Assembly: GCF_030529325.1 (NCBI RefSeq)
Contig: NZ_JAUMXC010000001.1
Span: 52,342 to 116,341 of the forward strand
DNA length: 64,000 nt
Origin: Porphyromonas sp.
GTDB lineage: Bacteria > Bacteroidota > Bacteroidia > Bacteroidales > Porphyromonadaceae
Direction: 5' to 3'
Positions 1-10,421 of the stretch are shown one piece after another (positions within the stretch are counted from its first letter, which is position 1; every line of letters starts with the position of its first letter). The translations under genes and the position numbers were made by a program. The notes beneath the pieces were generated by a model. That model saw nothing but the letters and a program-made list of their open reading frames with translations, searched no databases and was not told the origin of the DNA.

Positions 1-631
1 CATGAGTCAAAGCAAGGTCCAACATAAAAGTCTGAGCAAGACTCTTGGTCGTCTTGGGGTTATCTGCAGGACCTGTGGTAATCTCAGCATTGAGATCAGA
101 GCGCAAATATCGCACAGTAGCACCAAGACTCCACATCGGATGGAACTTGATGGCATATCCCAAGTCAAATGCAAGCTCAAAAGGATTTATGGTCAATGGC
201 TTGGAATTGTCTTGTCTCGGAAACAACAAAGCCTCACCAATATCGAAGTACCTGAACGAAGCACTCAGGCCATGGCGGATATCGCTCCCCCAAGTATAGT
301 AACCGGTCAAATAAGTAATCCCCATATCCTTGGCAATCTCAGTGAGCCAAGGCGTATAGGATAAGGAAACACCCCAGGTCTTCTGACTGAATCCAAGTTT
401 GGAGATATTGTGATAGATAGAATAAGTGTCTGTCCCTGTAGCCACGCCGGTATCAGCCATACCTGCACTCCTTGCGTCAGGCACAATAACTGCTGAGACC
501 GCTCCAATCTGAGGAGGATTGAAGTACTCTCGGGTTGAGGAAGTCCCGGAAGTACCTTGCCCCGAAGCTATCGTGACTCCAAACAAGAGGGGTGTCAACA
601 AGCCTACTATTTTGGTGTATCTGAGTTTCAT
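1..631 (-). CDS. Outer-membrane beta-barrel protein, N-terminal part only (gene runs off window start); possible T9SS PorV/LptO-like
   Basis: Reverse-strand ATG at 631 and no stop before position 1, so it is missing from the ORF track. Translation MKLRYTKIVGLLTPLLFGVTIASGQ (signal peptide) then ...VPDARSAGMADTGVATG... which resembles the PorV/FadL-like barrel N-terminal motif as recalled from memory. Confidence 0.4.
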   Translation of the reverse strand, partial: MKLRYTKIVGLLTPLLFGVTIASGQGTSGTSSTREYFNPPQIGAVSAVIVPDARSAGMADTGVATGTDTYSIYHNISKLGFSQKTWGVSLSYTPWLTEIAKDMGITYLTGYYTWGSDIRHGLSASFRYFDIGEALLFPRQDNSKPLTINPFELAFDLGYAIKFHPMWSLGATVRYLRSDLNAEITTGPADNPKTTKSLAQTFMLDLALTH

Positions 632-679
632 GTGATGTGTATTTGTACTTTATCTGTTTTTTGCTTCAGCTTTGTTCAG

Positions 680-1279
680 TCATCGAATACCGACAAAGGC
701 CAACTCTTCCTCTCCCCATGCGATGTAGAGATCGTCACCCTCTGTGACAGGCTCATAAGCCGGCAACAAAGGAAAGGTAAGCAAGTCCCCAATCTTGAGC
801 ATGAAATAACGGCTCAACATAGAGAGATAGGTATCCACTGTCGAACGAGACAACAGCTCGATAAGCCTTCTCTCATCACCATAGATGAATGTCAATTGTC
901 GATCAGAGCATTTGTCATAAGTCATCATCGAACCTTGGACAAGTGAACCGTCAAAACCCGAATAGGGCACATGAGGAGCCATTGTTTTCAAAGCGTCTCG
1001 GACGTCGTCAAGACCACACAAAGAAAAACCCACACCGACCTGCTCCCAATATCGATGAGCGAACTCGTGTTCGACAAACTTACCCACGCGTGCGATACGA
1101 ACAATCATGTGCGGCTGTACATACAACCTGCGGATATGTTCGGGACAATAAACCACCTTGCCGGAGTTAAGCATGGCCGAGTCCGGCTTGGTATATATAC
1201 TCCTGATATCAGGCTTATCACTCAAATGCTCATGATCGTCCGGAAGCAAATGATCAAAATCTGTACAAAAAATCCTCAC
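680..1279 (-). CDS. Hypothetical protein (His/Asp-rich N-terminus DHLLPDDHEHL, possible metal-binding enzyme)
   Basis: 199 aa ORF co-directional between rex and the PorV-like gene. No confident family assignment from sequence alone. Confidence 0.35.
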   Translation of the reverse strand: MRIFCTDFDHLLPDDHEHLSDKPDIRSIYTKPDSAMLNSGKVVYCPEHIRRLYVQPHMIVRIARVGKFVEHEFAHRYWEQVGVGFSLCGLDDVRDALKTMAPHVPYSGFDGSLVQGSMMTYDKCSDRQLTFIYGDERRLIELLSRSTVDTYLSMLSRYFMLKIGDLLTFPLLPAYEPVTEGDDLYIAWGEEELAFVGIR

Positions 1280-1320
1280 TCTTAGCTTCTAAATATCTAT
1301 GTCTGATTTATGCCTCATTT

Positions 1321-1962
1321 TCACTGATGAGACTGTTCCTTCAGTCGGTTAAACATCACAGCAAGGTGAGCATACATCGAAGTATTCTGTACCACAACGC
1401 CATCGGGGACTGTGATACGTAGCGGCGTAAAGTTCCATATCGCCTTTATCCCATGCTCTACCATCATATTGGCAACCTCTTGCGCATTACCAATGGGGAC
1501 AGTCAATATCCCCACAGTGATATCAGGAGAGATGACCTCAGCCAATTTGTCCATGTGATAAATAGGCAGACCTCCGACAGTAGTTCCACAGAGTTCGTCA
1601 GATACATCAAAACCTGCCACGATCTCAAGACCATACTGATTGAGACCTCTATCTGTGATCAGAGAAGCACCGAGGTTACCCACACCAAACACACAAGCTT
1701 TGTGACAGTCATTGAAGCCTAAAAAGTCCTCCAAGACCTCGACCATATTATTCACATCGTATCCGACTCTTGTCTTGCCGGACAGAGAGACATAGGACAA
1801 ATCCTTTGCTACCAAAGCGGAGTCAACCCCAATGGACTTTGCGATATAAGTGGATGAAACCACCTTTTCACCTTGCTTACTTAGCAATTTCACATACGCC
1901 AAGTACCAAGGCAATCTACGGAGGGCGGGCTCTGGCACCTGACTATTTCTCTTCTTTGCCAT
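1321..1962 (-). CDS. rex: Redox-sensing transcriptional repressor Rex
   Basis: Winged-helix N-terminus (LRRLPWYLAYVKLL) plus Rossmann domain GVGNLGASL; start placed at internal MAKKRNSQVPEPA (1962), not the longer ORF-track start. Confidence 0.85.
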   Translation of the reverse strand: MAKKRNSQVPEPALRRLPWYLAYVKLLSKQGEKVVSSTYIAKSIGVDSALVAKDLSYVSLSGKTRVGYDVNNMVEVLEDFLGFNDCHKACVFGVGNLGASLITDRGLNQYGLEIVAGFDVSDELCGTTVGGLPIYHMDKLAEVISPDITVGILTVPIGNAQEVANMMVEHGIKAIWNFTPLRITVPDGVVVQNTSMYAHLAVMFNRLKEQSHQ

Positions 1963-2302
1963 TTTCAAAATACAATTCTCTTTACAATGGCTCTTACCTC
2001 TACCGACCAAATTATATGGCAAGCGGGTAACAGTCTGCGTTAATAATCAATATTCAAAAACCTTTCACATCACAAAAATAAAGATTTTGAATGGCTTTGC
2101 ACAATAAAGAGACAAATATTTAATGAAAAAAATGTCTAATATTGGCAGAAATACAGATTAATGACGATATTATCGAGAGACAGAGTCTTTTATCAATAAA
2201 AACGGGCACTAATCCTCCCCTATCTTCCTTACCCACGAGCGCATATAGACACCTTGACAACCCATCCAGAAGAACGTCATCTTATCCTCTAAAATATTTT
2301 GA

Positions 2303-2310
2303 TAAATTTG
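2303..2310 (+). promoter_or_regulatory. Bacteroidetes-type -7 promoter box TAAATTTG (TAnnTTTG) about 40 nt upstream of the Hint-protein ATG
   Basis: Matches the sigma-ABfr -7 consensus TAnnTTTG; no other ORF in the 330 bp intergenic region. Confidence 0.3.
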
Positions 2311-2349
2311 CCGTATCAGATAGTGCAAACTCAAAAAATCAATACAACT

Positions 2350-3567
2350 ATGAAACGGGTTTACATCATTTTAGCCATACTCTTATCCATCCAGACAGGA
2401 TATGCCCAGATTAAGGAAATGCATCCTACTCAGACCGAACGATTGGATCTGAGCGCTAAGGGAGAAAAAGCTTTTGAAGCAAAGGCCAAAGCCATACAAA
2501 AGATCTACGAAAAACTGGAGAAAAAGGGTGGTTCGGAAGCCCTAACCAAAAAGGAAAGAGAACTCCTTGACAGCTACGACGACACAATAGACAGTTACTG
2601 GTCCATCATCGGGAGCGGATGTAGCTGGTACTGTGGAGGAGGTACCAAGAGCGTCACGGCCTCAAGCCACCTCAAGGCTCAAGGCTCAATAAACTATCTA
2701 CCCGACAACGCTCATGACCTTAACTATAAGAACGCATGGGCAGAAGGAGTCCCGGGCTACGGGATCGGAGAATACCTGTTGTACACCTTCGATGCAACAG
2801 CTCCACGGATCAATCAGATAATTGTAGTCAATGGTTATGTCAAAAGTAAGACCGCTTGGGAAAACAACTCCAGAGTCAAAAAACTGAAAGTATACATCAA
2901 CAATAAACCCTATGCCATACTCAACCTCAAAGACATAAGAGGATCTCAGACATTCGATGTCGAGCCCATAGGCAACACTCCGAGAGAGAACGAGGAGGAG
3001 ATGCAAAAGAAGGGAGACTGGACAATGAAGTTTGAGATATTGGAAGTATATAAGGGCGCAAAGTATGATGACGTCATCATATCGGAGATCTATTTCGATG
3101 GGTTGGATGTACACTGCCTTGCCAAGGGGACTCCGGTCCTTATGGCGGATATGTCTGAGAAAAACATCGAAGACTTGGAGATCGGCGACCTTGTTGCGTA
3201 TATAGATGGCAAGGAGTTCAAAACCGCACGTATAGAAAAACTTGCAAAAGCAACACATCACGGACTCGTCACCTACAGATTTGAGAGTGGTAGAAGCATA
3301 ACAACAACACAGGATCATCCATTCAGAATAGAAACAAAAGGTTGGTCATCCCTAAGCCCCGAAAAATCGGCTAGGTATAGAGGATTTGAAAAAGTAAGAA
3401 AGGTCGAAATAGGAGACGAATTCGCGACAGCATCAGGCAGAGACCGATTGATTGCAATCGAGCACCTGAACGAGACTCAAGAGACCTACACTATTTCGAA
3501 AATGAACAATGGAGATCACTTCATCGCCAATGGGCTGATCGTAGGGATCGAAGAACTCAACGAATAA
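2350..3567 (+). CDS. Secreted protein: signal peptide + coiled-coil/Lys-rich region + F5/8 type C (discoidin) domain + C-terminal Hint (Hedgehog/intein-like, BIL-type) domain
   Basis: MKRVYIILAILLSIQTGYAQ signal; VTASSHL...AWAEG...ISEIYFDG discoidin-like motifs; Hint block A C-LAKGTPVLMADMS (Cys codon 3115-3117) and block B TTTQDHPF (His codon 3316-3318). The protein ends right after the Hint domain. Confidence 0.6.
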   Translation: MKRVYIILAILLSIQTGYAQIKEMHPTQTERLDLSAKGEKAFEAKAKAIQKIYEKLEKKGGSEALTKKERELLDSYDDTIDSYWSIIGSGCSWYCGGGTKSVTASSHLKAQGSINYLPDNAHDLNYKNAWAEGVPGYGIGEYLLYTFDATAPRINQIIVVNGYVKSKTAWENNSRVKKLKVYINNKPYAILNLKDIRGSQTFDVEPIGNTPRENEEEMQKKGDWTMKFEILEVYKGAKYDDVIISEIYFDGLDVHCLAKGTPVLMADMSEKNIEDLEIGDLVAYIDGKEFKTARIEKLAKATHHGLVTYRFESGRSITTTQDHPFRIETKGWSSLSPEKSARYRGFEKVRKVEIGDEFATASGRDRLIAIEHLNETQETYTISKMNNGDHFIANGLIVGIEELNE

Positions 3568-3589
3568 ATCACACCGACAAAAATAATCA

Positions 3590-3630
3590 AAGGGGTGTTG
3601 CTGATACGAACTCGGCAGCACCCCTTTTGC
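3590..3630 (+). terminator. Rho-independent terminator-like hairpin after the Hint-protein gene
   Basis: AGGGGTGTTGCTG...CAGCACCCCT stem followed by TTTT. Confidence 0.45.
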
Positions 3631-3741
3631 ATAAACAAGATAATATCAGACAATTAAAATCCAAATCTCCACCTCATCGCTCTCCACAATCCGAACCTTC
3701 CCACAAAGGGTCAAAGAAAAGATAAAGAACCTCCCAAATCA

Positions 3742-3803
3742 ATGTGTCTAACTTGATGAATGAAGTTGTCTAACTTGATGCATCAAGTTAGACAACCTTT
3801 TTT
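3742..3803 (+). repeat. Copy 1 of a ~60 bp structured repeat family (GTCTAACTTGA direct units + 14 bp perfect hairpin GTTGTCTAACTTGA-tgca-TCAAGTTAGACAAC + T6)
   Basis: Near-identical copies at 10582, 22312, 49024 (inverted) and 57736. The apparent 61 aa ORF 3760-3945 is an artefact of the repeat sequence. Confidence 0.8.
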
Positions 3804-4044
3804 CGACAGGCTGAAACCTTTTTTTACAACGATGAACAAGGGTGTGAAGGAGGCTTATCAGGAAAAGGGTTATGTTTTCTTGATTTATCAGCAGGAGATC
3901 CCCCAAAATGACAAGATTTTGCACAGTCTACACATCAAAATCTAGGAAAGACAATCGGAAAGTCAGAAGCCCCTGCAAAACATTCAAAAAAACATGCTAA
4001 ATAATTTGGAATAGCCAAAAGTAACATCGAACTTTGTACAGAAA

Positions 4045-5403
4045 ATGACCGCATTAGCACCCTTAGCAGAAAGAATGCGCCCACAGACTCTTGACTCCTA
4101 TGTAGGGCAGGAGCACTTGGTAGCGCCGGGAGCACCACTCTATGAGATGCTCTCCGGGAGTATTTTGCGCTCATTTATCCTATGGGGTCCTCCCGGAGTA
4201 GGCAAAACAACGCTGGCTCACATCATATCCAAAACCCTTGGTCTCCCCTTTTACACGCTTAGTGCCGTATCATCCGGAGTGAAAGATGTAAGAGATGTCA
4301 TCAGGGTTGCAGAGGATAGCAAAGGGGGCTTATTTTCGGGTGGTACACCGATCTTGTTTATAGATGAAATCCATCGATTCAACAAATCCCAACAAGACTC
4401 CCTTCTTCATGCTGTAGAGAGAGGGGTTGTGACACTCGTGGGAGCAACCACAGAAAATCCTTCGTTTGAGATCATCCGTCCGCTCTTGTCCAGGTGTCGC
4501 GTATTTGTCCTGAAATCTCTGGACGCCAAGGCAATGAGACAGTTGTTGGACAAAACTATCGAGACAGACACGCTGATGCAGGCGTTTGACTTTGAGATAG
4601 TAGAAACGGATGCGTTGTTTGCTGCAGCAGCAGGCGATGCCCGAAAGTTGCTCAACATCATAGAACTGCTCACCCTCACGCCTGAAGCTCAAAAAACGAA
4701 GAAGGTAGTCATCTCCAACGAAAATGTAGCAAAACATCTCCAACAAAATCCGGCTGTCTATGACAAAGGCGGTGAGATGCACTATGACATCATCTCGGCG
4801 TTTATAAAATCTGTGAGAGGGAGTCATCCCGACGCTGCGCTGTATTGGTTGGCTCGGATGATAGAGGGAGGAGAAGATCCGAAGTTTATTGCGAGACGTT
4901 TGGTGATCTTGGCAAGTGAAGATATAGGATTGGCTAATCCCAATGCTCTCCTCATAGCTCAGGCCGCATTTGATGCAATAGAAAAAATCGGCTGGCCTGA
5001 AGGTCGCATTTCTCTCTCTGAAGCAACAATATACCTGGCAACAAGCCCCAAAAGCAACAGTGCTTATGAAGCCATAGACAAGGCCTTGGCTTACGTACGT
5101 GCCAACCCGGCAGCACCTGTCCCCATGCATCTGCGAAATGCTCCGACAGAGCTGATGTCAGAATTGGGCTATGGAGCCGGATATATCTATCCCCATCTGT
5201 ACAAAGGTAACTATGCCCCTCAACAATATCTCCCCGAAGAAGTAAAGGGGATAACGTTTTGGGAGCCGGCAGATAATATACAAGAGACTCGTTTGATGGA
5301 GTTTGTGAATAGCAGGAGACAGATGTATGGAGAGAAAACCGACATTTTGTCCCCAAGATCTCAACAAATGCACAGGGAGTCTGACCCAAATATCGAGAAC
5401 TAA
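4045..5403 (+). CDS. rarA: Replication-associated recombination protein A (AAA+ ATPase RarA/MgsA)
   Basis: N-terminus [19 protein letters not shown] and Walker [10 protein letters not shown], like E. coli RarA. Confidence 0.9.
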
Positions 5404-5446
5404 TTACTATATTTATAAACTAAAATTATCCAAACTATTTTCAACA

Positions 5447-6526
5447 ATGAAAAAGCACAATTTCAATGCAGGACCATGTGTCCTACCTCGCGAAGCAGTG
5501 GAATCTGCAATCGAAGCTATCCGTGATTTCGACAACACCGGTATCGGTATCCTTGAAATCTCTCACCGTACTCCGGGCTGGGAACGCATCATGAAGGAAA
5601 CAGCAGATCTATGGCGCGAACTCCTCAATATCCCCGACAACTACAAGGTACTTTTCCTTGGCGGTGGTGCAAGCACTCAGTTCTTCCATGTCCCTGCAAA
5701 CATCCTCGGCAAGAAGGCTGCTTACCTACAGACAGGTGTTTGGGCGAAGAAGGCTGCTAAGGAAGCTAAGTTCTATGGTGATGTAGAAATCGTTGCTTCT
5801 TCAGAAGATAAGAACTATTCTTACATACCAAAAGGATACACCATCCCTACTGATGTTGACTACTTCCACATCACTACAAACAACACTATCTACGGTACTG
5901 AAATCCATGAAGACATCGACAGCCCCGTCACTCTCGTTGCCGACATGTCATCTGACATCCTCAGCCGTCCTGTAGACGTAAGCAAGTACGGTATCATCTA
6001 TGGTGGTGCTCAAAAGAACGTAGGTCCTGCAGGTGTTACTTTCGTCATCGTACGCGAAGACCTCCTTGGCAAGGTAGAGCGCAAGCTCCAGACAATGGTG
6101 GACTACCGCACACACATCGGTGATGCTGAGAAGGATCGCTCAATGTTCAACACACCTCCTGTATTCTCTATCTTCGTAATGCACGAAACTCTAAAGTGGG
6201 TGAAGAACCTCGGTGGTCTTGAAGCAATGTACAAGATCAACAAGGAAAAGGCTGAACTCCTTTACAACGAAATCGACCGCAACAAGATGTTCGTCGGTAC
6301 AGCAGCTAAGGAAGACCGTTCACTCATGAACGTTTGCTTCGTAATGGCTGAAGAACACAAGGACAAGGAAGCTGCATTCATGGAATTTGCGAAGGCTGCA
6401 GGTATGGTAGGTATCAAGGGTCACCGTTCAGTAGGTGGTTTCCGTGCTTCTATCTACAACGCTTGCCCACGTGAGTCTGTAGAAGCTCTTGTTAAGTGTA
6501 TGCAAGACTTCGAAAAGCAATTCTAA
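5447..6526 (+). CDS. serC: Phosphoserine aminotransferase
   Basis: [18 protein letters not shown]... typical SerC N-terminus; start moved to ATG 5447 (the ORF-track upstream extension overlaps rarA). Confidence 0.9.
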
Positions 6527-6556
6527 AATCATACTAATCCGTAAAAATATTCAGTC

Positions 6557-7480
6557 ATGGCAAAAGTATTGATCGCAACGGAAAAGCCTTTCGCTCCCGT
6601 AGCTGTCGCTCAGATCAGCGAGATCCTTGAGGCAAACGGTTTCGAGGTAGTGAAGCTCGAAAAGTACACAGAGAAAAGTCAACTTCTCGAGGCTGTCAAG
6701 GATGTGGAAGGTATCATCGTACGTAGTGACATCATCGATGCAGAAGTCATCGAAGCAGCTAAGAACCTCAAGATCGTCGTGCGTGCAGGTGCAGGTTATG
6801 ACAATGTCGACTGCGAAGCTGCAACAAAGCACAATGTCTGCGTGATGAACACCCCTGGCCAAAACTCTAATGCAGTTGCTGAGCTTGTGTTTGCAATGCT
6901 GCTCTTCCACGTAAGAACAGGATTCAATGGCAAGACAGGTAGCGAGCTTATGGGTAAAAAGCTTGGTGTAATGTCTTATGGTAACATCGGACAGAATGTT
7001 GCGCGTATCGGTCAAGGCTTCGGTATGGAGGTCTATGGTTTCCAGAGATTGACTCCTGCGAACTACTTCGTTAAGGACGGCTTCAAGTTCTTCAACGACA
7101 GAGAGCTTATGTTCGGTCTTTGCGACGTGATGGTATTAGCTATGCCTGCAGCGGCAAACACAAAGAAGATGATCGACTACAATTTGCTAAGCCGTATGCC
7201 TAAGGGTGCTATCCTTGTGAATATCGCTCGTAAGGACCTCATCAACGAAGCTGACCTTCTCCGCGTTCTTGGTGAAAGATCTGACCTTACTTACCTCACT
7301 GACGTGAAGCCTGATTGTGAAGCAGAACTTGTCGAAAAGTTCCCTAACCAATACTTTGCAACTGCAAAGAAGATGGGAGCTCAGACTGCTGAAGCTAACA
7401 CAAATGCAGGTATGGCTGCTGCTAAGCAAATCGCAGCGTTTATCCAAACAGGCGAAGCTAAGTTCAAAGTCAATAAGTGA
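6557..7480 (+). CDS. serA: D-3-phosphoglycerate dehydrogenase (short form, no ACT domain) / 2-hydroxyacid dehydrogenase
   Basis: D-isomer 2-hydroxyacid dehydrogenase fold, 307 aa, directly downstream of serC. Confidence 0.75.
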   Translation: MAKVLIATEKPFAPVAVAQISEILEANGFEVVKLEKYTEKSQLLEAVKDVEGIIVRSDIIDAEVIEAAKNLKIVVRAGAGYDNVDCEAATKHNVCVMNTPGQNSNAVAELVFAMLLFHVRTGFNGKTGSELMGKKLGVMSYGNIGQNVARIGQGFGMEVYGFQRLTPANYFVKDGFKFFNDRELMFGLCDVMVLAMPAAANTKKMIDYNLLSRMPKGAILVNIARKDLINEADLLRVLGERSDLTYLTDVKPDCEAELVEKFPNQYFATAKKMGAQTAEANTNAGMAAAKQIAAFIQTGEAKFKVNK

Positions 7481-7588
7481 TCAAACTTACATCCATAGAA
7501 AATATTTGAGAAAGGGACGACCGGCAGTAAAATACTACTGTCGGTCGCACCTGCCTCTATTCCCATACATCACAAACAACAAAATCCA

Positions 7589-8845
7589 ATGGCAAGAGTA
7601 AAACCTTTTAGAGGATTTCGTCCTCCCCAAGATCTTGTTACACAAGTAGCATCACGTCCATACGACGTCCTAAATAGCGATGAAGCTCGCGAAGAAGCAG
7701 CGGGCAACGAAAAGTCTCTCTATCACATCATCCGTCCTGAGATCGACTTCCCTGTAGGAAAGGACGAACACGATGAAGATGTGTACGCTAAGGCTGCAGA
7801 GAACTTCAAGATGTTCCAAGACAAAGGCTGGTTGGTTCAAGACTCTGAAGCATGCTACTACATCTATGCTCAGACAATGAATGGCAAGACCCAGTACGGT
7901 ATTGTCGTGGGTGCGAACGTGGATGACTACATGAACAATGTCATCAAGAAGCACGAGCTCACTCGTAAGGACAAGGAAGAAGACCGCATGAAGCACGTAC
8001 GTGTCAACAACGCCAACATCGAGCCTGTATTCCTTGCTTTCCCGGACAATGCTGAGTTGGAGCGCATCATCAACAAGTACAAAGCAACTGAGCCTATCTA
8101 CGACTTCGTAGCTCAACTCGATGGCTTTGGTCACCACTTCTGGGTTGTCAATGACAAGAACGACATCGAGACTATCACCAAGGCTTTCGCTGCGATGCCA
8201 TACCTATACATCGCTGACGGTCACCACAGATCTGCAGCTGCTGCTCTTGTAGGTGCTGAAAAGGCAAAGGCGAACCCCAACCACACAGGTGACGAAGAGT
8301 ACAACTACTTCATGGCAGTATGTTTCCCAGCAAGCCACCTTACCATCATCGACTACAACCGTGTTGTTAAGGACCTTAACGGTTTGTCAGAAGCAGACTT
8401 CCTCAAGGCTCTTGAAAAGGACTTCATCGTCGAAGAAAAAGGCGCAGCAGAATACAGGCCTGCAAAGCTCCACAACTTCGCTCTCTACTTGGGCGGTAAG
8501 TGGTACTCACTCACAGCTAAGGAAGGCACTTACAATGACAACGATCCTATCGGCGTCCTTGATGTGACTATCTCGTCTAACCTCATCCTCGATGAGATCC
8601 TCGGCATCAGAGACCTCCGCACCTCTAAGAGAATTGACTTCGTAGGTGGTATCCGTGGTCTTGGTGAACTCAAGAAGCGTGTAGACAGTGGTGAAATGGT
8701 TGCAGCACTTGCACTTTATCCTGTGTCAATGAAGCAACTCATGGACATTGCAGACTCAGGCAACATCATGCCTCCAAAGACTACATGGTTCGAGCCTAAA
8801 CTACGCTCAGGTCTTGTAGTTCACACTCTTGAAAACGACAAATAA
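7589..8845 (+). CDS. DUF1015 family protein
   Basis: 418 aa; the conserved Bacteroidetes partner that follows serC-serA; starts MARVKPFRGFRP. Confidence 0.7.
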   Translation: MARVKPFRGFRPPQDLVTQVASRPYDVLNSDEAREEAAGNEKSLYHIIRPEIDFPVGKDEHDEDVYAKAAENFKMFQDKGWLVQDSEACYYIYAQTMNGKTQYGIVVGANVDDYMNNVIKKHELTRKDKEEDRMKHVRVNNANIEPVFLAFPDNAELERIINKYKATEPIYDFVAQLDGFGHHFWVVNDKNDIETITKAFAAMPYLYIADGHHRSAAAALVGAEKAKANPNHTGDEEYNYFMAVCFPASHLTIIDYNRVVKDLNGLSEADFLKALEKDFIVEEKGAAEYRPAKLHNFALYLGGKWYSLTAKEGTYNDNDPIGVLDVTISSNLILDEILGIRDLRTSKRIDFVGGIRGLGELKKRVDSGEMVAALALYPVSMKQLMDIADSGNIMPPKTTWFEPKLRSGLVVHTLENDK

Positions 8846-8857
8846 TAGATAAAGTCC

Positions 8858-8896
8858 GGATCAGGCTTCCCATGCTCACTCATGGGAAGCCTGATC
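8858..8896 (+). terminator. Terminator-like hairpin after the DUF1015 gene
   Basis: GGATCAGGCTTCCCATG-ctcact-CATGGGAAGCCTGATC, a perfect 16 bp stem. Confidence 0.45.
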
Positions 8897-8978
8897 TAAC
8901 AAAAGTCTTTATAATTTTATGAAGGCGATCTAAAAATAATTAAGAGAACGCCTCCCAACTTTTTTCATTTCACACATA

Positions 8979-10421
8979 ATGGAAACCAATAAAGTAAGGG
9001 TCGAAAGCGACCTTCTTGGTTCAAGAGAGCTTCCCAACAGCGTACTCTATGGGGTACAGACTCTCAGAGCGATGGACAACTTCAACATCTCTCCATTCAA
9101 GCTCAACAACTATCCCCTATTCATTCACGGCTTGGCTTGGACCAAGATGGGTGCGGCAAGAGCAAACGGTAAGCTCGGTGTCATCACACACGAGTGTGCT
9201 CAAGCTATCGAAAAGGCATGCCAAGAACTTCTCGAAGGCAAGCACCACGAGCACTTCCCCATCGACATGATCCAAGGAGGTGCAGGTACATCTACAAACA
9301 TGAATGCCAACGAGGTCATTGCCAACAGAGCACTTGAGATCCTCGGACACGAACGTGGACACTACAAGCACTGCTCTCCTAACGACCACGTCAACGCATC
9401 TCAGTCTACCAACGATGCTTACCCAACAGCCATCCACTTGGGTCTCTACGCTACTCACCTCCGCGTGATCGAGCATATGGAGTCGTTTGTGGCGGCCTTG
9501 AGAGTGAAGGGTAAAGAGTTTGCACATGTCATCAAGATGGGTCGCACACAGCTACAAGATGCTGTGCCTATGACACTTGGTCAGACATTCAACGGTTTTG
9601 CTTCGATCATCGAAGAAGAGATCCCTAACCTCCGCCACGCCGCAGATCAACTCCTCACCATCAACATGGGTGCTACTGCTATCGGTACAGGTATCTGTGC
9701 CGTACCGGGCTACGCAGAAGAGTGCACAAAGGCTATCAAGGAGATCACCGGATGGGACATCAAGCTTGCCGAAGACCTCGTAGGTGCGACATCAGACACA
9801 TCACACCTCATAGGCTACTCACAAGCCCTCAAGCGTATTGCAGTAAAGATCAGCAAAATCAGCAATGACCTCCGTCTCCTCTCATCAGGCCCACGTTGTG
9901 GTCTCGGTGAGATCGAGCTTCCTGCACGCCAACCCGGATCATCTATCATGCCGGGTAAGGTCAACCCTGTGATCCCCGAAGTAGCATCTCAGATCGCATA
10001 CAAGATCATGGGTAACGACGTGTGTGTCACCATGGCCGGCGAATGTGCACAGATGGAGCTCAACGCGATGGAGCCGGTCATGGCGCAGTGCTGTTTCGAG
10101 TCATCTGACTACCTCACGGTCGGTCTTGACACCCTCCGTGATCTATGTATCGTAGGCATCAAGGCGAACGAAGAGCGTTGCCGCAGACACGTCAGCGAAA
10201 GTCTCGGTATCGTCACTGCTCTCAACCCATACATCGGGTACAAGAACTCGACAAAGATCGCGAAGGAAGCCGTTGCGACAGGTCGCCCTATCACAGAGAT
10301 CGTCATCGAAAAGGGCATCCTCACTCAGGCAGAACTGGATATGATCCTCGCTCCTGAAAACATGATCAAGCCTGTACACCTTGACATCAAGCAATTGGAT
10401 AACCTCGGATACGAGGAATAA
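8979..10421 (+). CDS. aspA: Aspartate ammonia-lyase
   Basis: N-terminus collinear with E. coli AspA (RVESDLLGSRELP...YGVQTLRAMDNF) and fumarate-lyase signature GSSIMPGKVNPV. Confidence 0.85.
   Translation: METNKVRVESDLLGSRELPNSVLYGVQTLRAMDNFNISPFKLNNYPLFIHGLAWTKMGAARANGKLGVITHECAQAIEKACQELLEGKHHEHFPIDMIQGGAGTSTNMNANEVIANRALEILGHERGHYKHCSPNDHVNASQSTNDAYPTAIHLGLYATHLRVIEHMESFVAALRVKGKEFAHVIKMGRTQLQDAVPMTLGQTFNGFASIIEEEIPNLRHAADQLLTINMGATAIGTGICAVPGYAEECTKAIKEITGWDIKLAEDLVGATSDTSHLIGYSQALKRIAVKISKISNDLRLLSSGPRCGLGEIELPARQPGSSIMPGKVNPVIPEVASQIAYKIMGNDVCVTMAGECAQMELNAMEPVMAQCCFESSDYLTVGLDTLRDLCIVGIKANEERCRRHVSESLGIVTALNPYIGYKNSTKIAKEAVATGRPITEIVIEKGILTQAELDMILAPENMIKPVHLDIKQLDNLGYEE

Follow-up and report, generated by a model that had tools for sequence, protein, structure and literature searches.

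Hint (Hedgehog/intein) domains are, to our knowledge, the only known protein modules that need no cofactor to convert a peptide bond of the backbone into a thioester. In intein and Hedgehog chemistry, the first Cys together with the Thr and His of block B catalyses an N-to-S acyl shift, and the later splicing steps need cyclisation of an Asn and a +1 nucleophile. Outside inteins and toxin release, the physiology of bacterial Hint domains is, as far as we know, essentially unexplored. Among the bacterial intein-like (BIL) domains, the A-type has a conserved C-terminal His-Asn, and the B-type has all intein motifs but the C-terminal one and occurs in non-conserved proteins, within their hypervariable parts (PMC7765530). 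A bacterial group with a terminal Hint domain is described by Burglin 2008, citing Dassa & Pietrokovski (PMC2362128); its members carry a signal peptide, two conserved upstream Cys and motifs A and B, occur in Myxococcus (MXAN_6253), Stigmatella, Photorhabdus (plu1731), Serratia, Yersinia and Reinekea, and end in (F/Y)A(G/N)G(I/F)LVGD in its supplementary alignment. Here we analysed a 64,000-nucleotide stretch of a Porphyromonas sp. genome (contig NZ_JAUMXC010000001.1; hereafter the window), in which a gene at 2350-3567 (+) encodes a 405-aa protein from an ATG start. Our results suggest that its product is a Sec-exported, CBM32-fold lectin-like protein, most likely periplasmic, with a C-terminal BIL-type Hint domain that appears specialised for the first splicing step only. 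An earlier annotation made from the DNA letters alone (hereafter the original prediction) had already called several of these features.

The C-terminal domain has a Hint fold. A profile of the family, searched against PDB sequences, matches the BIL2 domain of Tetrahymena BUBL1 with E values of 2.4e-9 to 6e-9 and the AXH domain of ataxin-1 similarly (3.6e-9 to 6e-9), followed by inteins, a Clostridium BIL domain and Hedgehog. A Foldseek search with the predicted Hint fold gave an E value of 3e-11 and a TM score of 0.84, and among solved structures BIL2 from the Tetrahymena BUBL locus comes closest. The model has the horseshoe beta fold of the Hint superfamily, and the sequence has a Cys as the first residue of block A and the TxxH of block B. 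The profile and structural evidence is decisive, and it confirms the C-terminal Hint domain of the original prediction. The Hint hidden Markov models (HMMs) suggested alongside it match the single sequence weakly. PF01079 scores 13 bits against a gathering cut-off of 29.7, PF07591 has no match at E<=1 in a Pfam scan of the protein, and Hom_end_hint reaches 28.6 bits against 32.1, while TIGR01445 (intein_Nterm) passes its cut-off (26.8 vs 24.5). The best single Pfam match on the region is AXH (PF08517), at 32.5 bits against a gathering cut-off of 33. The nearest relatives of the domain are BIL-type domains rather than PT-HINT or the Hog domains of Hedgehog. Across the phylum, mean pairwise identity within the Hint domain is 53%, which indicates strong selection. 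E401 is its last conserved residue and the protein ends four residues later, so that the protein indeed stops at the end of the Hint domain.

To examine the catalytic residues, we counted residues in an alignment of 253 non-redundant family sequences drawn from 120 close homologues, 64 representatives at 50% identity and 84 genomic loci. The first Hint residue, placed by the original prediction at the codon 3115-3117, is Cys256 and is present in 250/250 sequences. It is preceded by a conserved junction, with D253 in 231/253, V254 in 241/253 and H255 in 227/253 (Leu in 14). In block B, Thr320, His323 and Pro324 occur in all 253 sequences and Asp322 in 247/253, so that both the Cys and the TxxH on which the prediction relied are conserved. 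Neither of the two outcomes named as refuting the original prediction, the absence of a significant Hint or BIL match and a lack of conservation at these positions, was observed. His303 is a further near-invariant residue that is specific to the family; the tandem BIL relatives described below have Arg or His there, and BIL2 has a residue other than His. We considered His303 as the counterpart of Hedgehog Asp46 and dropped the idea, because the two fall four residues apart in a profile alignment with a Hedgehog sequence that scored the same as 1at0 in the family-profile search.

The other end of the domain is different. Position 399 is Gly in 230/253 sequences, position 400 holds Val, Thr or Ile in 237/253 (Ala in 5, Leu in 4 and 3 gaps, with Asn not among the residues listed), and the +1 position is Glu401 in 245/247. 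Thus the block G His and terminal Asn of canonical inteins are replaced by Gly399 and Val/Thr/Ile400, in a C-terminal block of the form ANGLIVG[VIT]E. Alignment to the intein consensus and to tandem BIL domains places Thr381 and Asp/Asn389 at the block F Asp and His. The domain also differs from a canonical intein in that it does not interrupt a host protein and has no C-extein starting with Cys, Ser or Thr, the +1 residue being Glu. At the level of residues, the N-terminal catalytic set is invariant and the C-terminal splicing set is uniformly replaced.

Outside the family, the nearest relatives that the Hint profile finds are proteins in which 2-7 BIL-type Hint domains follow one another head to tail (P0121, P0123, P0124, P0125, P0126, P0129, P0135, P0158 and others). 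Each of these domains starts with CF.(A/P)GT and ends with LVHN, and the next Cys follows after 0-3 residues, often K, KC or KGG. Many of the arrays form the very C-terminal end of giant proteins (P0157, 3569 aa; P0221, 4235 aa), and the named sources include a Nanoarchaeota metagenome-assembled genome (MAG) and Mucilaginibacter. Since these relatives have both Cys1, Thr and His and a terminal LVHN, it is the C-terminal chemistry in particular that the family has lost, while the N-terminal one is retained.

Short tails are the rule after the Hint domain, with 0-18 aa in 62/64 of the 50%-identity representatives carrying this Hint subtype. The exceptions are P0210, which has a TonB_C domain, and P0138, which has 140 uncharacterised residues. 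No toxin domain was seen after the Hint domain among the 64 representatives, which answers the question the original prediction had raised about toxins in homologues. Some variants with this Hint subtype carry an unrelated N-terminal part or additional modules: SH3_3+NADase_transloc+Hint in P0267 (513 aa), MORN_2+NADase_transloc+Hint in P0150 (603 aa), YARHG+unknown+Hint in P0259 (433 aa) and NADase_transloc+Hint+TonB_C in P0210 (546 aa), where the Hint domain is internal though without His-Asn. The accessory modules SH3_3, YARHG, MORN_2 and TonB_C are in keeping with a location in the periplasm or envelope and with a modular role in processing.

The part of the protein that precedes the Hint domain is an exported lectin-like module. 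The discoidin domain of the original prediction is a NADase-type F5/8 type C domain, which scores far above the curated cut-offs over the full length of both models, PF25302 (NADase_transloc; 191 bits vs 27, model positions 1-146/146) and NF047619 (NADase_discoid; 140 bits vs 38, model positions 1-130/130). At its start it carries the motif GCSWYCGG(G/P), in which Cys91 and Cys95 (window 2620-2634) co-vary strictly, the alternative state being Asp...Asn in 8 sequences. These two residues probably form a local CxxxC disulfide, and their co-variation fits a disulfide made outside the cytoplasm. The signal peptide of the original prediction was also found, as a Sec/signal peptidase I (SPI) peptide. 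Gln20 directly after it is present in 178/203 aligned sequences, and this fits the Bacteroidetes 'Q-rule', by which a Gln just after the signal peptide marks substrates of signal peptidase I (PMC5837995, PMC10653852). The signal peptide contains no Cys and no lipobox, so the protein is not a lipoprotein, and no Pfam match related to the C-terminal sorting domain of the type IX secretion system (T9SS) was found, the C-terminus being occupied by the Hint domain. For lack of both a lipobox and a recognisable T9SS domain, the label 'secreted' most likely means periplasmic. The region between the signal peptide and the lectin-like domain (aa 20-87) is the least conserved part, with 34% mean pairwise identity and no Pfam family above threshold, although P26 in its short strands is invariant. 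It had been described as a coiled-coil-like linker; it is predicted to be helical, but as a hairpin of two helices with a predicted local distance difference test (pLDDT) score of about 85-90 in the AlphaFold2 (AF2) model. The coordinates of all features are listed in Table 1.

Table 1 Features of the gene and its flanks, in window coordinates
Feature	Position	Strand	Remarks
Candidate Bacteroidetes-type -7 promoter box TAAATTTG (TAnnTTTG)	2304..2311	+	Read from sequence; ~40 nt upstream of the ATG
Predicted Sec/SPI signal peptide, aa 1-19, MKRVYIILAILLSIQTGYA before Q	2350..2406	+	Predicted cut between A19 and Q20
N-terminal region, aa 20-87	2407..2610	+	Short strands 22-31, then helical hairpin 36-59 / 67-75; AF2
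NADase-type F5/8 type C / CBM32-fold domain, aa 88-252	2611..3105	+	Includes the Cys91/Cys95 pair (GCSWYCGG)
Predicted scissile junction D253-V254-H255/C256	3106..3117	+	Cys codon 3115-3117
BIL-type Hint domain, 146 aa (aa 256-401)	3115..3552	+	Followed by four residues, then the stop codon
His303, family-specific near-invariant residue	3256..3258	+	250/253
Block B TxxH, T320-Q-D-H323	3307..3318	+	Inside TTTQDHPF, aa 318-325
Degenerate block G and +1 site, G399-I400-E401	3544..3552	+	Replaces His-Asn-(Cys/Ser/Thr)
Terminator-like hairpin	3589..3627	+	Starts 22 nt past the stop codon (3565-3567)

We propose the following mechanistic model for the protein. Upon export, the signal peptide would be cut before Gln20 and the disulfide between Cys91 and Cys95 would probably form. 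The peptide bond between His255 and Cys256 would then be converted into a thioester by an N-to-S acyl shift, with Thr320 and His323 assisting. As the protein lacks a C-terminal Asn, a +1 nucleophile and a C-extein, this thioester could be resolved only by a nucleophile from outside, which may be water or an acceptor molecule. Attack by water would yield a ~26 kDa fragment (Gln20-His255) and a ~17 kDa Hint fragment, and an acceptor would end up covalently attached to the lectin part at its C-terminus. Hydrolysis would be the default outcome and would mature the protein into a lectin-like fragment and the Hint domain. The +1 residue of an intein adjoins the thioester; Glu401 occupies this place and is thus a plausible general base, and His303 may be considered as a second candidate. 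The original prediction had put forward an N-S acyl shift followed by cleavage or ligation, and the loss of His-Asn and of the +1 nucleophile fits this sequence of events. Computation shows which domains are present, their fold, the conserved residues and the lack of sequence after the Hint domain; where the protein is exported to, the disulfide, the catalysis and what becomes of the thioester are inferred.

We regard a catalytically active domain that performs N-terminal autoprocessing, whatever its outcome, as fairly probable. Several points weigh against it. The single-sequence scores of the Hint HMMs lie under the Pfam cut-offs, the best single Pfam match belongs to AXH, a non-catalytic domain, and the gene neighbourhood has no conserved member that would hint at an acceptor or a pathway. 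In aerobic members, the oxidising periplasm could also cause difficulties for a free catalytic thiol.

A special case of autoprocessing would be ligation as in Hedgehog or BUBL, in which a specific nucleophile of the envelope attacks the thioester and the CBM32-like domain becomes anchored through His255. Candidate acceptors would be the amine or hydroxyl of a lipid head group, the amine of a peptidoglycan stem peptide, a glycan or a protein lysine. The BIL2 domain, the closest solved structure, reportedly mediates a ubiquitin-like conjugation according to its depositors, and the layout of an exported cargo followed by a terminal Hint domain is that of Hedgehog. The high conservation of the Hint domain, the invariant non-canonical His303 and Glu401 at or near the active site, which go beyond the needs of simple self-cleavage, and the co-occurring TonB_C and SH3_3 domains, which frequently have cell-wall or envelope associations, are all consistent with ligation. 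However, the 4-aa tail leaves no adduct-recognition region like the sterol-recognition region (SRR) of Hedgehog, an acceptor-related neighbour gene is not conserved, and His303 is displaced from Hedgehog Asp46 as described above. The conserved W-x-S-x-x-P insert is common to the tandem BILs and BIL2, which makes it a feature of the clade rather than an acceptor site specific to the family. We consider ligation to a specific acceptor unlikely, and we similarly doubt the wider scenario that Bacteroidota use the Hint domain in Hedgehog style to transfer the lectin through His255 onto an envelope acceptor, with the eukaryotic AXH domain having arisen by decay from this BIL clade.

Two further explanations depart from autoprocessing altogether. 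The domain might be a non-catalytic binding module like AXH, with Cys256 in a structural role: besides the Pfam match, the family profile finds ataxin-1 AXH with a common GW(A/S)S..PE motif, and several members are named 'AXH domain-containing protein' in UniProt. Against the invariant N-terminal catalytic set we judge this to be quite improbable. It is more improbable still that the protein is a selfish or conflict element, that is, a decayed intein, a remnant of a homing endonuclease or a PT-HINT toxin stem that has lost its toxin. The NCBI name of P0014 ('Hint domain-containing homing endonuclease'), a weak PADLOC HEase match confined to block A, the patchy distribution without synteny even within Porphyromonas and the slightly lower GC content of the 2-4 kb bin (0.418 vs ~0.46) would fit such an origin, but the domain is a 146-aa mini-Hint without an endonuclease insert, is not inserted in a host protein and lacks His-Asn. 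Nor does it match PF07591 at E<=1, the tails are short in 62/64 representatives, and no immunity or cassette genes were found nearby. The architecture is moreover uniform at 45-67% identity across orders, which argues for a conserved cellular function. A defence or phage origin of the gene was also considered and rejected, since PADLOC and PHROGs gave only weak block-A matches to intein-bearing models.

The gene itself is real and is putatively expressed as one unit. In the open reading frame (ORF) listing of the window, 2299..3567 (+) is a single long ORF that begins with TTG. The homologues begin at M1 (MKR or MKQ), which is kept in >=90% of them, and the Met of their MK... start sits at 2350. 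TAnnTTTG is the -7 consensus of Bacteroidetes sigma-A promoters, and a candidate box of this kind lies between the TTG and the ATG; together with the homologues, it supports the ATG at 2350 as the real start and argues against the TTG. The hairpin behind the stop codon has a 16-bp stem with a folding energy of -27 kcal/mol (z = -6.6 vs shuffles), and it was missed by a consensus terminator scan. A 100% identical protein is recorded from Porphyromonas sp.

A second hairpin, GTTGTCTAACTTGATGCATCAAGTTAGACAAC, lies at 3765-3796 (within 3744-3805) in the 480-nt gap before rarA. It has a perfect 14-bp stem followed by a T-run, and a direct copy of TGTCTAACTTGATG is located 5' of it at ~3745-3758. 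It may represent either another terminator or a small repeat element, and no Rfam family was found in window 1-9000. An antisense ORF of 206 aa at 2698-3318 (-), inside the gene, recurs in 12-23 homologous loci, and it is considered spurious, as this recurrence is due only to the conserved sense strand.

To analyze the distribution of the family, we collected its homologues and their genomic context. A total of 1913 homologues were identified at E<=1e-3, the best 120 of which are almost all about 400-420 aa long and 54-66% identical to the window protein. At least 299 relatives are found in a scan of one genome per GTDB species, so that the rarity in Bacteroidetes assumed by the original prediction does not hold. 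Members occur in Porphyromonas canoris, Proteiniphilum, Dysgonomonadaceae, Marinilabiliaceae, Marinifilum, Cyclobacteriaceae, Flammeovirga, Marivirga, Saprospiraceae, Chryseolinea, Aquimarina, Tenacibaculum, Paludibacteraceae and Salinivirgaceae, and every member carrying a name belongs to Bacteroidota. The few relatives in MAG bins labelled as other phyla lie on short contigs and are probably binning errors. The family is therefore widespread in Bacteroidota yet patchy. Like the AXH label, the other database names refer to domains only ('NADase-type glycan-binding domain-containing', 'Hint domain-containing'), and a literature search found no paper on this Bacteroidota family.

Neither three complete genomes nor ORF clustering over 84 loci revealed a conserved neighbour gene. 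The sole recurrent 'neighbour' (23 loci) is the antisense ORF within the gene itself, and an ABC ATPase lies downstream in only 14 of the 84 loci. In the window, the gene is flanked by Rex (1321-2022, -) and RarA (4045-5403), and these flanks are not common to the other Porphyromonas loci (L009, L010). No paralogue was found within the window by tblastn. The GC content of the bin 2001-4000 is 0.418, compared with about 0.46-0.47 in the flanks, and the best matches of the gene come from Dysgonomonadaceae and Flavobacteriales (65-67%) rather than from Porphyromonas canoris (62%). Lateral acquisition of the gene is possible.

The family offers a clean test case for bacterial Hint chemistry. The protein is small and soluble, the architecture is uniform, and the N-terminal catalytic set is invariant while the C-terminal set has been removed; moreover, members occur in the cultivable Bacteroidota Porphyromonas canoris, Marinifilum, Flammeovirga, Aquimarina and Marivirga. 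An adduct on His255, if found, would mean Hedgehog-like protein-ligation chemistry in the bacterial cell envelope, and ligation to the envelope would represent a way of anchoring proteins in a diderm envelope that is independent of sortases and L,D-transpeptidases. If the protein only cleaves itself, the reaction would be an ordinary maturation step of an uncharacterised lectin.

Among the described Hint proteins, BIL domains come closest. The named BIL comparators are BIL2 of Tetrahymena thermophila BUBL1 (PDB 6tmm/6y75), which was crystallised as the C1A-N143A mutant, and the Clostridium thermocellum BIL domain (2lwy). A-type BILs and BIL2 end with His-Asn, whereas the present family has Gly-Val/Ile/Thr-Glu, which sets it apart from the A-type. 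The B-type is a loose fit: blocks A and B are kept without the C-terminal motif, but the block F Asp and His are missing as well, and whereas BILs are described from hypervariable regions of their hosts, the Hint domain here ends a uniform, conserved single-copy protein. Hedgehog proteins carry a sterol- or adduct-recognition region after the Hint domain where the family has a 4-aa tail; in line with the low PF01079 score (13 bits vs 29.7) and the unaligned Asp46, the protein is not a Hog protein and cholesterol biology is not expected. PT-HINT modules of polymorphic toxins precede a variable toxin and an immunity gene, and here PF07591 does not match, the tails are short and no neighbour is conserved, so that it does not belong to this class either. 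The eukaryotic AXH domain (ataxin-1, HBP1; PF08517) shares profile similarity over the N-terminal ~105 Hint residues, including GW(S/A)S..PE, and a literature search found no paper linking 'AXH domain' with 'intein'.

For the middle domain, the closest described protein is the Streptococcus pyogenes NADase (SPN), whose translocation domain (PDB 7ji1; PF25302) belongs to the same Pfam and NCBIfam family. According to PMC9887584, which cites Velarde 2022, this domain reportedly recognises carbohydrate and binds cell surfaces. The Porphyromonas protein differs in that it lacks the NADase catalytic domain and the SLO partner, its host is diderm and, unlike in SPN, the PF25302 domain serves as cargo for a Hint module.

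The terminal-Hint group of Burglin 2008 (PMC2362128) is similar in overall layout. The window protein likewise has a signal peptide, an upstream Cys pair (C91/C95), a terminal Hint domain and an LVG-type end, a likeness in features, and the penultimate His is replaced by Gly in both. The window protein thus belongs to a kind that has already been recognised bioinformatically: a comparable class of C-terminal Hint proteins in proteobacteria and myxobacteria was noted in 2005 and 2008, and the existence of such proteins is no surprise to specialists. This kind is functionally uncharacterised, and its novelty is smaller than the original prediction supposed. The junction of the earlier group is Gly or Ser before the Cys and the hosts belong to different phyla, whereas the present family has DVH before the Cys.
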